Shown piece after piece: positions 1 through 37,962 of a stretch of 37,962 nucleotides of DNA. The notes beneath the pieces were generated by a model. That model saw only the letters and a list, made by a program, of their open reading frames with translations, did no database searches and was not told the DNA's origin. A program made the position numbers and the translations under genes. Location: positions 1 through 37,962 of the forward strand of contig JAEWNM010000041.1 in the NCBI GenBank assembly GCA_023392755.1. Direction: 5' to 3'. The DNA comes from Bacillota bacterium (GTDB lineage: Bacteria; Bacillota; Clostridia; Christensenellales; Aristaeellaceae). Within the stretch, counting starts at the first letter, position 1, and each line of letters opens with the position of its first letter.

Positions 1-127
1 TGCGCAAGAATTTCGAAGAAATTCTCTCCTTGCCCGAGCAAACGGCCGCAAAATGGCAACGCCATTTTGCAGTGCAGCGAGGGAAAAACTCAACAAAGTG
101 GCGACAGCCACTTTGTTGATACACTGA
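1..127 (+). repeat. Copy A (right-hand 127 nt only, cut by the window edge) of a multi-hairpin non-coding repeat family
   Basis: Aligns ungapped with 28262-28388 (14 mismatches in 127 by hand count). Hairpins: AGAATTTC-gaa-GAAATTCT (7-25), GCAAAATGGC-aac-GCCATTTTGC (48-70), CAACAAAGTGGC-gaca-GCCACTTTGTTG (91-118). Shared end ATACACTGA. Confidence 0.85.
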
Positions 128-128
128 A

Positions 129-3128: not shown

Positions 3129-3176
3129 GCTTCCCCCTCAATCTATTCATTTGAATACATGAAAAGGGGTGACCAA

Positions 3177-4109
3177 ATGAAGACATCCAAGACCGTATCC
3201 CTGTTACTGGCAGCCGCACTGTTCCTTGGCCTGCTCACAGGCAGCGCCATGGCAGAAGCCACAGCACCCATTTGCGTAAAGGACATGACAGGCCGGGAAA
3301 TCCAGCTGGATGCGCCCGCAACGCGCATAGTGGCGCTATTGGCCGCCGACTGCGAGATACTCTACGCCCTGGGGGCGGGTGACGCGCTGGTGGGCCGCGG
3401 CGAATACTGCGACTATCCTGAGCAAGTGCAAAGCGTTCCCTCCGTGCAGTCCGGCGCGGAGACAAACATTGAGCAGATCGTGGCCCTCACGCCGCAGGCG
3501 GTGCTCATGAGCACCATGGCGCAGACGGAAGAACAGGTTGCCGCGCTGGAAGCGGCGGGCATCAAGGTCGTGGTCAGCGACGCCCGCGATATTGCAGGCG
3601 TCTATACGGCCATAGAGCTGATTGGCGCGGTGGCCGGAAAGACGGAAGAAGCAGCAGCCCTGACGGAGAGCATGAAAACTGCCTTTGAAGGAATTGGAAA
3701 AAAGGCCGCGGGCGACGGTACCAAAACAATCTACTTTGAGGTGTCTCCCCTGCAATGGGGGCTGTGGACCGCTGGAAGCGGCACGTTTATGGATGAGCTG
3801 GCAACCATGCTGGGGCTGAAAAACGCTTTTGCGGATGTACAGGGCTGGGGCGAAATCTCCCAGGAGCAGGTTATAGAGCGCGACCCCGATTATATCGTCA
3901 CCATTGCCATGTACAACGGCGAAGGCCCCGACCCGGTGGAGGAAATCATGAACCGGGAAGGCTGGCAGGATTTGAAGGCGATAAAGAACAAAACCATACT
4001 CCATGCCGATTCCAACGAAATCTCCCTTCCCGGTCCCCGCCTGGTGGAAGCTTGTGAAACCTTGTATCAGTTCGTGTACGAACCGGAGACACTTGTGCCC
4101 GCGGCATAA
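3177..4109 (+). CDS. ABC transporter substrate-binding protein, cobalamin/siderophore (BtuF/FecB-like) type
   Basis: Signal peptide MKTSKTVSLLLAAALFLGLLTGSAMA and the periplasmic-binding-protein pattern RIVALLAADCEILYALGAGDALVG. Start at 3177 follows RBS AAAGGGGTGA. Lies behind a B12 riboswitch. Confidence 0.8.
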   Translation: MKTSKTVSLLLAAALFLGLLTGSAMAEATAPICVKDMTGREIQLDAPATRIVALLAADCEILYALGAGDALVGRGEYCDYPEQVQSVPSVQSGAETNIEQIVALTPQAVLMSTMAQTEEQVAALEAAGIKVVVSDARDIAGVYTAIELIGAVAGKTEEAAALTESMKTAFEGIGKKAAGDGTKTIYFEVSPLQWGLWTAGSGTFMDELATMLGLKNAFADVQGWGEISQEQVIERDPDYIVTIAMYNGEGPDPVEEIMNREGWQDLKAIKNKTILHADSNEISLPGPRLVEACETLYQFVYEPETLVPAA

Positions 4110-6170: not shown

Positions 6171-7200
6171 ATGAACGGAACAGCGCAGACAAAACAGTCA
6201 AAACGCAGGCGGCTTTATGTCAGATGGCTGCTGCCCGCCCTTGCCCTCCTTTTCGCCGCATCACTCCTTGCCTTTGCCTGGCCGCACATCCAGGCGGCCC
6301 GCACCATAGGAAGCCTTCGGAAGGTAGACGACTATCCGCTGTATACAATGACCTATTTCGGTGGCTATGATCTTGACTATTCGGCGTATAACCCAAGCCT
6401 TGCGGTGGCCGGCGGCGACATGCTGTGCAGCAGCTTTCTGGCACGCAACGAAAAAGGGGAGCCTCTTTTTTGCCGCAACCTCGATTATACCCTGACCAGC
6501 CATCCCATTGTAATGGTGAGTACCGGCGCGCCGGGAAAAAATGCGGGGCTGGCCATTTGCGATTTGTTTTATCTGGGTTACCGGGGGCGGCAAGCTGCCT
6601 ACCGGCTCGGTGTCAAGTGACGGCGCGCTGCTTATGGCACCCAGGATCACCATTGACGGCATGAACGAACATGGCGTTGCGCTGGCAATCCTGTCCGTCC
6701 CCCATGCCGAGCCTGCGCTTGATCCGGCCAGGCAGACCATTGACGAGGTAGCCGCCGTGCGCCTTTCGCTGGACAACGCAAAAACCGTGGATGAGGCGGT
6801 TGAGGTAATCAAGGGTTACAATATGGTTTTCAATGAAGGCCCGGTGCACTTCATGATTGCGGACGGAAGCGGCGATTCGGCCATTGTAGAGCTGGTGGAC
6901 GGGGAGACCAAGGCAATCCGAAGCGGGAAAGCATGGCAGGTGGCCACAAATTTCATTGTGTCCAGCCCGGCCCGGGAAGGCGTGGGGCAGGACCGCTATG
7001 ATCTGGCGGAGCAGGCGCTTGAAAAGGCCGGAGGCGTTCTTGGCGAGGAGGAGGCAATGGACCTGCTGGGCCGTGTATCGCAGCCGGGCACGCTGTGGTC
7101 TGTCATCTATAATTTGCGAACAGGCGAAGCCAGGCTTGCGCTGAAAAAGAACTTTGATAAGATATATCAGTTCAAACTGAAGATGCATGACCCCGTGTAG
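6171..7200 (+). pseudogene. C45-family / choloylglycine-hydrolase-like Ntn amidohydrolase (carcinine hydrolase / acyl-CoA:6-APA acyltransferase family), split by a 1-nt frameshift
   Basis: ORF 6171-6620 (signal anchor, candidate nucleophile Cys in MLCSSFLARNEKGEPLFCRNLDY) continues in the next frame as 6541-7200 (LLMAPRITIDGMNEHGVALAIL...). The frames switch at the run CCGGGGGCGG (6581-6590). Confidence 0.65.
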
Positions 7201-28120: not shown

Positions 28121-28146
28121 CGCAGCCGGATGCCGGCATGAAAAAC

Positions 28147-28178
28147 AGCCGGGAAGCCGCCGCGCGGCTGTCCCGGCC
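28147..28178. repeat. Left copy of a 32-nt direct repeat (a terminator-type hairpin) flanking repeat copy B
   Basis: AGCCGGGAAGCCGCCGCGCGGCTGTCCCGGCC is preceded by AAAAA. It differs from 28388-28419 at one base (A/C in a bulge position). Confidence 0.8.
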
Positions 28179-28184
28179 CAGACC

Positions 28185-28388
28185 ATCAAAAAACCCTGGG
28201 AGGTATCGGAGGGCCGAGGTCCTCCGATGCTAGATCGCAAACCAGCGACATGTGCGGTGGTTTGCGAGGAATTTTGCAAAAATTCCTTCCTTGCCCGAGC
28301 AAACGGTCGCAAAATGGCATCGCCATTTTGCAGTGAAGCGGGGGAAAAACTCAACAAAGTGGCGACAGCCACTTTGTTGATACACTGA
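28185..28388 (+). repeat. Copy B (complete, about 204 nt) of the multi-hairpin non-coding repeat; MITE-like or structured-RNA element of unknown family
   Basis: Five helices: 28205-28228, 28235-28243 paired with 28259-28267, 28267-28287, 28309-28331 and 28352-28379. The left 75 nt match 37795-37869 (5 mismatches). The right 127 nt match 1-127. No credible ORF. Confidence 0.85.
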
Positions 28389-28419
28389 GCCGGGCAGCCG
28401 CCGCGCGGCTGTCCCGGCC
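28388..28419. repeat. Right copy of the 32-nt direct repeat (hairpin) flanking repeat copy B
   Basis: AGCCGGGCAGCCGCCGCGCGGCTGTCCCGGCC followed by TTTG. Together with the left copy it would reconstitute a single A5-hairpin-T3 bidirectional terminator. Confidence 0.8.
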
Positions 28420-28449
28420 TTTGAAAACCTGCGGGCCGCTCCTTTATGC

Positions 28450-37711: not shown

Positions 37712-37794
37712 ATGCGCCGGTGCATTCCCGTGCCCCAATCCAAAATCCGGCTCTTTCGCAAAGTCTATGGCTGGCTCCCCGCCAACCTCGGACT

Positions 37795-37962
37795 ATCAAA
37801 AAACCCAGGGAGGTATCGGAGGGCCGAAGCCCTCTGATTCTAGATCGCAAACCAGCGACATGTGCGGTGAGTGAGGTGAGCGCTGCCAGTGGCAGCAAAG
37901 GGCGAACCGAACGAATCAACCGAAACAAGCGGCTGTAAGCCGCGCCGATTGAGGTTGCGGAG
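37795..37962 (+). repeat. Copy C of the multi-hairpin repeat (left part plus an extra internal module of about 84 nt; cut by the window edge)
   Basis: 37795-37869 match 28185-28259 (5 mismatches in 75). Then comes an insertion with its own hairpins (GCTGCC-agt-GGCAGC, GCGGCT-gta-AGCCGC). GGTTGCG at 37953-37959 then re-joins the consensus (GGTTTGCGA in copy B). Confidence 0.8.

Follow-up and report, generated by a model that had tools for sequence, protein, structure and literature searches.

A dispersed non-coding element bracketed by duplicated terminator hairpins in gut and digester Clostridia

Introduction

What has been inserted between two convergent genes of a Clostridia contig, and how did it come to have the same terminator hairpin on both sides? 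The question is raised by contig JAEWNM010000041.1 of the Bacillota bacterium assembly GCA_023392755.1 (Clostridia; Christensenellales; Aristaeellaceae), the whole of which (37,962 nt) was analysed and is called the window below. An earlier note, made from the letters alone, had marked there a 204-nt element without open reading frame (ORF), folding into five hairpins and bracketed by a 32-nt hairpin duplication, and had proposed that it could be a MITE (miniature inverted-repeat transposable element) aimed at hairpins, a small RNA (sRNA) gene family or the remnant of a guide or bridge RNA. The element turned out to belong to a repeat family whose members stand at unrelated terminators, many of them between two copies of the terminator hairpin, and a MITE-like DNA element that finds terminators by their shape is the explanation that we come to favour. 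Loci outside the window are given by number (L001 and so on) where they have to be told apart.

Results

A whole terminator hairpin is duplicated around the window element

The element occupies positions 28179-28387, that is 209 nt between the repeats and not the 204 nt first given; it has no notable ORF, CAG...CTG ends and five near-perfect hairpins (H1 to H5), the same five that had been marked before (Table 1). On the left lies the stop of a VOC/PhnB-type gene (PF06983), on the right that of a convergent DUF4489 gene. The direct repeat that brackets the element (28147-28178 and 28388-28419) was confirmed: the copies are identical at 31 of 32 positions, each is a GC-rich stem-loop, and the 32-mer occurs within the window only at these two flanks.

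Empty sites, which the earlier note had proposed to look for, were found at three loci, all of them reached only through homologues (84-90% identity) of the DUF4489 protein; exact-protein matches of the flanking genes of the window led only to contigs that carry the element or end inside it. At L057 (DUF4489 homologue 86% identical) the element is absent and a lone hairpin, AGCCGGGCAGCCGCCAAGCAGCTGTCCCGGCT, nearly identical to the window 32-mer, stands between an A-run and a T-run, which is the terminator that removal of the element and one repeat had been predicted to restore. A single hairpin without the element was also seen at L052 (84% protein identity) and L056 (90%). The DUF4489 homologues are labelled Oscillospiraceae, Clostridiales or Acetanaerobacterium by their sources, which puts the window among the Clostridia. 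By the evidence of these homologous loci the 32-mer is the ordinary DUF4489 terminator; a REP/BIME repeat (repetitive extragenic palindrome/bacterial interspersed mosaic element), the independent origin that would have spoken against a duplication, was excluded, since within the window the 32-mer is found only at the two flanks and the hairpins differ at every locus.

The DUF4489 terminator is an insertion hot spot, because at L049 the homologous terminator holds a different, divergent family member (39.7 bits, same orientation) and at L053 and L054 it holds remnants of the element, with a synteny breakpoint exactly there. The L053 remnants include a mini-element of 38 nt, CAGACCATCAACAAAGTGGC-ATA-GCCACTTTGTTGATA, in which the two element ends are fused, the 5' terminus being joined straight to the 3' terminal hairpin. 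L053 and L054 encode an identical DUF4489 protein and have different DNA past the terminator (~2560-2720), the breakpoint lying at the remnants and the mini-element; this suggests that element repeats mediate rearrangements.

Whole-hairpin duplication at other loci

For each copy, the 70 nt on the left were aligned with the 110 nt on the right, flanks from different loci serving as the control (mean 13.5, maximum 26). The score was above the control 99th percentile (22) at 19 of 32 loci (26-79). The duplicated segment is the stem-loop to within 1 nt, 20-34 nt long (68 nt in L027) and usually AG...CT; it is always a palindrome and its sequence is different at every locus. The left copy directly abuts CAGAC(C/T), and the right copy in most cases keeps the T-run of the original terminator. 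Many copies have near-perfect duplications (97-100%); among the older insertions, whose left copy has decayed, are L015 (with transitions as its only differences), L007, L010 and the window-end copy.

The targets have no fixed flanking motif, and runs of A on the upstream side occur about as often as runs of T on the downstream side. Counted crudely, 24 of 30 copies share the orientation of the upstream gene, and among tandem gene pairs the ratio is about 7 to 3; strict co-orientation was rejected as an artefact of convergent gene pairs, between which most of the sites lie and where either orientation counts. The absence of a clear polarity is as expected for a symmetric attack on a palindrome. 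At L044 (710-790, 1000-1040) the target is a tandem array of alternating hairpins, CCCCGGCCCTTCGGGCC and CCCCTCCGGAGGAGGGG, one of which is duplicated around the element.

A multi-copy family that breaks assemblies

An exact pattern of the terminal hairpin was scanned against 185,579 species genomes and an exact pattern of the H2 loop against 241 million metagenome contigs. The species-representative genomes gave 15 loci, mostly in Bacillota metagenome-assembled genomes (MAGs) from one study, with 3-4 loci in each of three MAGs and others in one Oscillospiraceae and one Christensenellales MAG; the metagenome contigs gave 22 loci, with 8 copies in one metagenome. About 35 copies beyond those of the window were recovered from Bacillota/Oscillospiraceae MAGs and metagenomes. 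The element is thus a member of a repeat family, not described before, in Clostridia of guts and digesters, and copies within one genome or metagenome stand at unrelated loci. A covariance model of the core (R1), which can be used to annotate the family, recognised 32 strong copies on one strand (79-181 bits) and also weaker distant relatives. Core identity is 81-96% within a genome and 57-67% between the window and the most distant subfamilies; the terminal inverted repeats are weaker in L028-type copies and absent in the most distant relatives. Two core patterns had no match (0) in viral contigs, and when the element and the fused termini were compared by BLASTN with plasmids and phages, there were no matches or none beyond chance.

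The window itself holds three copies (BLASTN, nhmmer), the element at 28179-28387 and two partial ones, one at each window end (Table 1), and a decayed copy of the 129-162 hairpin lies just upstream of the window-end copy (~37769-37788). Independent assemblies of these loci either include the element or stop within it, as is typical of a repeat with many copies: the family interrupts short-read assemblies at predictable positions, and the window ends in copies on both sides. Set against L047, the end of the window and its start are only 3 nt (GTT) apart in one continuous element, a long variant. The 37,962-nt sequence could thus be circular or circularly permuted, or be a contig broken in a multi-copy repeat, and the latter is at least as likely because other assemblies break at the same place.

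Ends and anatomy of the element

The terminal inverted repeat of the window copy is imperfect, 12 of 15 nt (CAGACCATCAAAAAA compared with the reverse complement CAGTGTATCAACAAA); an inverted repeat had been reported before, and 15 nt describe the ends better than the 9 nt then given. The terminus consensus is 5'-CAGACCATCAA(C/A)AAA at one end and TTTGTTGATRCNCTG-3' at the other, and the end motifs of the element as a pair are CAGACCATCAACAAA ... TTTGTTGATNNNCTG. H5 consists of a second copy of the 5' terminal motif and the 3' terminus, and a conserved A-run on its 5' side reads as a T-run on the minus strand, where H5 is terminator-like. Other conserved unpaired stretches are GGGAGGT near the 5' end, CCTTGCCCGARCAAACG between H3 and H4 and GAGGGAAAA before H5. 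The best-conserved part of the family is the 16-nt H2 apex, invariant in 26 of 26 aligned copies and still recognisable in a distant relative without CAG... ends (L038).

The hairpin arms are perfect in four of the five hairpins and 92% complementary in one. The 285-nt stretch around the element has a fold energy of -161.9 kcal/mol, compared with -102 ± 5.5 for dinucleotide shuffles (z = -10.9), and the opposite strand has a similar fold energy. The short ORFs of the element are not conserved, the substitutions being compensatory and not codon-like. The element matches no Rfam family, as had been supposed: the covariance models gave no match to it at gathering score or at E < 0.01, and neither a search of the element at gathering score and at E <= 10 nor one of 10 related loci at gathering score returned anything credible.

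Table 1 Features of the 209-nt element, its flanks and the partial copies in the 37,962-nt window.
Feature	Position	Strand	Evidence or remark
Element	28179..28387	+	Core 28189-28350 scores 164 bits with cmsearch
5' terminal inverted repeat CAGACCATCAAAAAA	28179..28193	+	CAGAC(C/T)ATCAA(C/A)AAA conserved in window-type and JGI994-type copies
Hairpin H1	28205..28228	+	Compensatory changes in 7/11 pairs; loop is the nested-insertion site in L006, L014 and L001
Hairpin H2	28235..28267	+	Invariant 16-nt apex AGCGACATGTGCGGTG at 28244-28259; G28259 also opens the 3' arm
Hairpin H3	28267..28287	+	Compensatory changes in 9/9 pairs across subfamilies
Conserved unpaired linker TCCTTGCCCGAGCAAACGG	28288..28308	+	Alignments
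Hairpin H4	28309..28331	+	Compensatory changes in 7/9 pairs
Conserved linker AGTGAAGCGGGGGAAAAAC	28332..28350	+	A-run is the T-run for H5 on the minus strand
Terminal hairpin H5	28351..28380	+	5' terminus repeated in the left arm; right arm formed by the 3' inverted repeat
3' terminal inverted repeat TTTGTTGATACACTG	28373..28387	+	Sequence of the ends
Left terminator stem-loop copy (target-site duplication)	28147..28178	.	T-run lost, abuts CAGACC
Right terminator stem-loop copy	28388..28423	.	Stem-loop 28388-28419, then retained T-run TTTG
3' part of a further copy	1..128	+	69 bits, model positions 75-159; cut by the window start; a different hairpin follows at 129-162
5' part of a further copy	37789..37962	+	Truncated at the window end; H2 loop holds a nested 93-nt module (37870-37962)

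Covariation and palindrome correction

In a structure-aware alignment of the 32 copies, 91.7% of the cells pair, compared with 34-51% when the partners are slid. Compensatory change on both sides was found in 27 of the 41 core pairs (H1-H4), and none of 500 shuffles reached the observed values; among well-supported pairs, G-U outnumbers A-C by 34 to 8 on the plus strand. A mutual-information scan for further long-range helices returned only columns correlated with subfamily.

Part of this signal could have arisen without selection on RNA. The H2 apex is present as its reverse complement in L027 (662-693), the loop of one duplicated hairpin copy is flipped in L045 (ATAA compared with TTAT), and three compensated pairs distinguish the hairpin copies on the two sides in L002. 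Flipped loops and compensated pairs of this kind are hallmarks of template switching within DNA palindromes, a process which could generate part of the "covariation". Near-perfect DNA palindromes can yield RNA-like covariation signals, a methodological caution that applies here. The fold appears to be maintained in lineages that are still mobile, since the coexisting lineages of 81-96% identity keep intact hairpins, many of them with near-perfect duplications.

An insert of about 105 nt in the H1 loop (L006, L014, L001) was considered as an RNA module and rejected, being a nested copy of a separate repeat family. This second family (CCATCTGGCTCAATCG...CTTCGGCTACGGAGCC) was found at L006 342-449, L014 1006-1075, L001 2-63, L007 359-703 and 6330-6432, and L049 113-264; its settings are the H1 loop, tandem clusters, the loop of a REP-like hairpin (L007) and, in L007 and L049, sites on its own, and hairpin loops appear to be its target. 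Part of the 93-nt module that sits in the H2 loop (window 37870-37962, L014 1140-1232) is the reverse complement of the ~105-nt repeat.

Search for a mobilising partner

The longer copy with a transposase or recombinase that the earlier note had looked to was not encountered among the 37 loci, plasmids, phages and viral contigs. All-against-all BLASTP of the ORFs in the loci revealed no recurring neighbour protein family. A scan with the 15-nt terminus gave at least 120 matches, and among the matches listed the only inverted pair (~1.7 kb) lies inside a phage structural gene and is due to chance. Long elements with hairpin duplication were also sought as hairpin pairs 0.1-6 kb apart; the candidate so obtained, a 4.9-kb pair in L006, was rejected, the pair being copies of a leader-like motif and not a duplication.

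Other observations

That leader-like motif, GGGATGGCNTCCGAAGGTTYCCAAAGGGCGACCGGAAAGCCCTTTGGTCGC..., is conserved and intergenic, its two copies 4.9 kb apart in L006 (2930-3000, 7838-7910) having no Rfam match at gathering score, and may represent a cis-regulatory RNA not described so far. In an Oscillospiraceae MAG, at L008 2487-2760, there is an unrelated insert of ~195 nt with several hairpins, beginning with CAG and flanked by a 38-nt direct repeat with the hairpin TGCGAAACGCAGTTTCGCA; it may belong to a further family that makes long duplications. In L038, two copies of a distant relative (the H2 hairpin with its apex and little else; 330-560, 3130-3370) bracket a methylmalonyl-CoA-type operon, the genes being on the other strand. 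Hairpins of REP/BIME type, GGGCGATTNNNAATCGCCC, flanked by CTACAG, are found repeatedly in L004 (2805-2823, 3517-3535, 3566-3584) and L007 (~6270-6300, 6440-6460). The only Rfam match in the window is a cobalamin riboswitch (RF00174, 2871-3051, plus strand, 72.8 bits).

Discussion

The 209-nt element is mobile and non-coding, lands at unrelated terminator stem-loops, duplicates the whole hairpin, has empty sites and keeps a conserved fold. It is short, with inverted ends, a duplication and dispersed copies, and shows in this way the descriptive features of a MITE save for a known parent insertion sequence (IS). On balance we think it probable that this is a non-autonomous MITE-like DNA element, moved in trans, that targets terminator stem-loops by their shape and duplicates the whole palindrome. 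The hairpin-targeting MITE proposed from the sequence alone is accordingly upheld as regards copy number, inverted ends, duplications (19/32) and empty sites; its autonomous partner was not found, and its derivation from an IS is tentative. The mini-element of fused ends at L053 and the 12/15 inverted repeat are the evidence from the ends for a MITE-like element.

In the mechanism that we propose, the target would be the GC-rich stem-loop of an intrinsic terminator, recognised by shape and probably extruded as a cruciform or hairpin. A staggered attack would join the element strands at the two feet of the palindrome, and because the strands would be joined there, gap repair would copy the whole stem-loop (20-34 bp, within 1 nt) to both sides. 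The mobilising enzyme is most likely a DDE transposase of the hairpin-targeting IS1182/IS5-related kind, encoded elsewhere; our guess is that the five hairpins and the invariant loop are kept for recognition by the mobilising protein or by way of a single-stranded intermediate. After insertion the left hairpin copy is probably no longer a terminator because its T-run is lost. Judging from the sequence, H5 and its A-run give a terminator-like site for the opposite direction, and the convergent genes are predicted to keep termination on both strands.

Several observations weigh against a DNA element of this kind. The 3' junction is ragged in L006 and L015, with TGA(T) microhomology, and the L035 duplication includes the last hairpins of the element itself, a partial copy adjoining a full one; both are unusual for DDE chemistry. 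Excision footprints, in the form of adjacent duplicated hairpins, were sought and none was convincing. The covariation and the G-U excess answer no obvious need of a double-stranded cut-and-paste element, the most conserved part is an internal loop and not the termini, and the distant relatives L034, L033, L032 and L038 keep the core without the CAG... ends. Such features leave some probability to a route through RNA, to one through single-stranded DNA and to an RNA with a function for the host. No autonomous copy, only short elements, was found in the 185,579 genomes and 241 million metagenome contigs, scans with internal patterns that would miss an IS sharing only the ~15-nt ends. An unlikely though not negligible alternative takes the conserved fold and the H2 loop as the working part: a single-stranded intermediate, RNA or DNA, and an enzyme which finds terminators by shape and rebuilds one on each side, by a mechanism distinct from DDE, HUH, DEDD and retro-homing.

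Two accounts place RNA at the centre, and we consider both improbable, to the same degree. In one of them the element is RNA-mediated, resembling a short interspersed nuclear element (SINE): a plus-strand transcript would be bound at its H2 loop by a reverse transcriptase acting in trans, target-primed reverse transcription would start at the hairpin foot, and a second, staggered nick would give the duplication. The strong compensatory variation in H1-H4, the conserved unpaired segments and the plus-strand preference for G-U over A-C fit such an account, as do the pairing of one precise junction with one that is ragged and has microhomology, the L035 partial copy that looks 5'-truncated beside a full one, the lack of an autonomous DNA version in two very large exact-pattern scans and of excision footprints. 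Yet the inverted-repeat ends and the fused-end mini-element point to DNA ends as what is recognised, the duplication has the palindrome as its centre of symmetry, the copies show no preferred orientation with respect to transcription, and no reverse transcriptase or promoter was found near any copy; to our knowledge no bacterial retroelement makes such long hairpin duplications. In the other account a functional structured RNA, a domain of the 3' untranslated region (3' UTR) or an sRNA with a protein-binding H2 loop, is kept by the host, and spread and duplications are secondary. The core is indeed conserved beyond the termini, in relatives which have a single hairpin or use H5 and a T-run as their own terminator (L014 5857-6009, L049, L034, L038), covariation is strong and the element always stands at gene 3' ends; on the other hand the neighbour genes are unrelated and none recurs, either orientation occurs relative to tandem genes, copy number is high enough to break assemblies, nested repeats in the loops and the flipped L027 loop would damage an RNA function, and stems so nearly perfect, with loops of 3-4 nt, are more characteristic of DNA palindromes than of RNA domains. 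The sRNA family of the earlier note is possible: the core helices covary strongly and G-U is in excess, the copies have no real orientation bias to flanking genes, and palindrome-correcting mutation could mimic the covariation.

Movement as single-stranded DNA by an HUH (Y1/Y2) enzyme, as in the palindrome-associated transposable elements (PATEs) of IS200/IS605 or in REPIN/RAYT systems, would have the hairpins, especially the bulged and mismatched H2 apex, as the recognised parts, and seems to us very unlikely. Function is apparently hairpin-dependent, the apex that does not vary belongs to an imperfect hairpin, a gene present once elsewhere in the genome could be the partner, as RAYTs are, and cut-and-paste footprints were not seen. 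HUH transposition makes no target duplication and inserts beside a fixed motif of 4-5 nt. The element has duplications of 20-34 bp, sequence-diverse targets and inverted-repeat ends, just one of its hairpins (H2) is bulged or mismatched and that one is not subterminal; an IS200/IS605 PATE was ruled out by the long duplications and the lack of a fixed flanking motif. IS110/IS1111 elements make no long duplications. A remnant of one of them carrying a bridge or seek RNA, the third of the early proposals, is the explanation that we would least expect to be right: near-identical copies stand beside unrelated hairpins that share no sequence, the hairpins, being perfect, lack the internal loops that would hold guide segments, neither long duplications nor inverted termini are traits of the family, and no DEDD recombinase was found near any copy. 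What speaks for it is the documented case of the orphan ssr9 modules of ISPpu9, in which a small-RNA module is mobilised in trans into a palindromic REP (PMC12288879).

If a MITE-like element aimed at terminator hairpins is the right explanation, it would be the clearest natural case known to us of a bacterial mobile element reading the shape of DNA or RNA and not its sequence. Insertion would regenerate the terminator that it hits and also supply a terminator-like hairpin for the opposite strand, and the upstream gene would probably gain a structured tail of 200 nt because the adjacent hairpin copy has lost its T-run, so that 3' UTRs in gut and digester Clostridia would be seen to be remodelled. 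It would also argue indirectly that the palindromes of terminators can be reached in vivo in the form of cruciforms or hairpins, and would point to an enzyme with structure-specific integration activity.

Among known systems, group II introns of class C enter the DNA directly behind the stem-loops of intrinsic terminators, whose structure is part of what they recognise. Duplications and inverted termini are absent from group II introns. Such an intron was ruled out here by the lack of a ribozyme core and of an Rfam intron match at E <= 10, a 5' end of CAGACC and not GUGYG, the duplication and the length of 209 nt. The bacterial MITEs (Correia/CREE, RUP, BOX, bcr1, Chunjie, QMITEs) are close in description, with less than 500 bp, no ORF, inverted ends, direct repeats, intergenic sites, many copies, folded transcripts, nested insertions and truncated derivatives; their usual duplication is fixed at 2-10 bp, whereas here it is 20-34 bp (68 in L027) and set by the target palindrome, and the interior is more conserved than the ends and no parent IS is known. 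A 2024 review of prokaryotic MITEs has nothing with a duplication of the whole terminator (PMC10969869). The likeness to Cas1-Cas2 and casposons is mechanistic only: a staggered attack on both borders of a repeat of ~30 bp, often palindromic, duplicates the whole repeat, and casposons have long duplications of 14-15 bp (PMC5137440), whereas the palindrome duplicated here is locus-specific and there is no array, leader or cas gene. The orphan ssr9 of ISPpu9 is likewise a module of RNA-gene size without transposase, mobilised in trans and landing in palindromic repeats (PMC12288879). Unlike our element, ISPpu9 requires the sequence of one particular REP, uses an AG dinucleotide for recombination and makes no long duplication.

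The closest comparison is with the IS1182 family, for which ISfinder records direct repeats of 0-60 bp. Its members IS1272 and TnSha1 of staphylococci target stem-loops, most of them transcription terminators, by structure and without sequence consensus, inserting at the hairpin base and striking the same terminator repeatedly and in both orientations (PMC4923244; PMC5678879), and MITEPye1 is a MITE with IS1182-like ends and 4-bp repeats (PMC11578231). Scans made with element patterns turned up no IS1182-type transposase or matching IS ends. The 209-nt element resembles these members in its structure-specific insertion at stem-loops and terminators, and the insertion proposed for it is exactly pathway b of the IS1272 cruciform model, which would duplicate the whole stem-loop (PMC5678879). 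IS1272 and TnSha1 themselves delete or replace the hairpin without duplication (PMC4923244; PMC5678879), whereas our element is bracketed by the whole hairpin and has an interior of five covariation-supported hairpins with an invariant loop. Shape-based targeting of terminators is already known from IS1182 members; the duplication of the whole hairpin is a different outcome.

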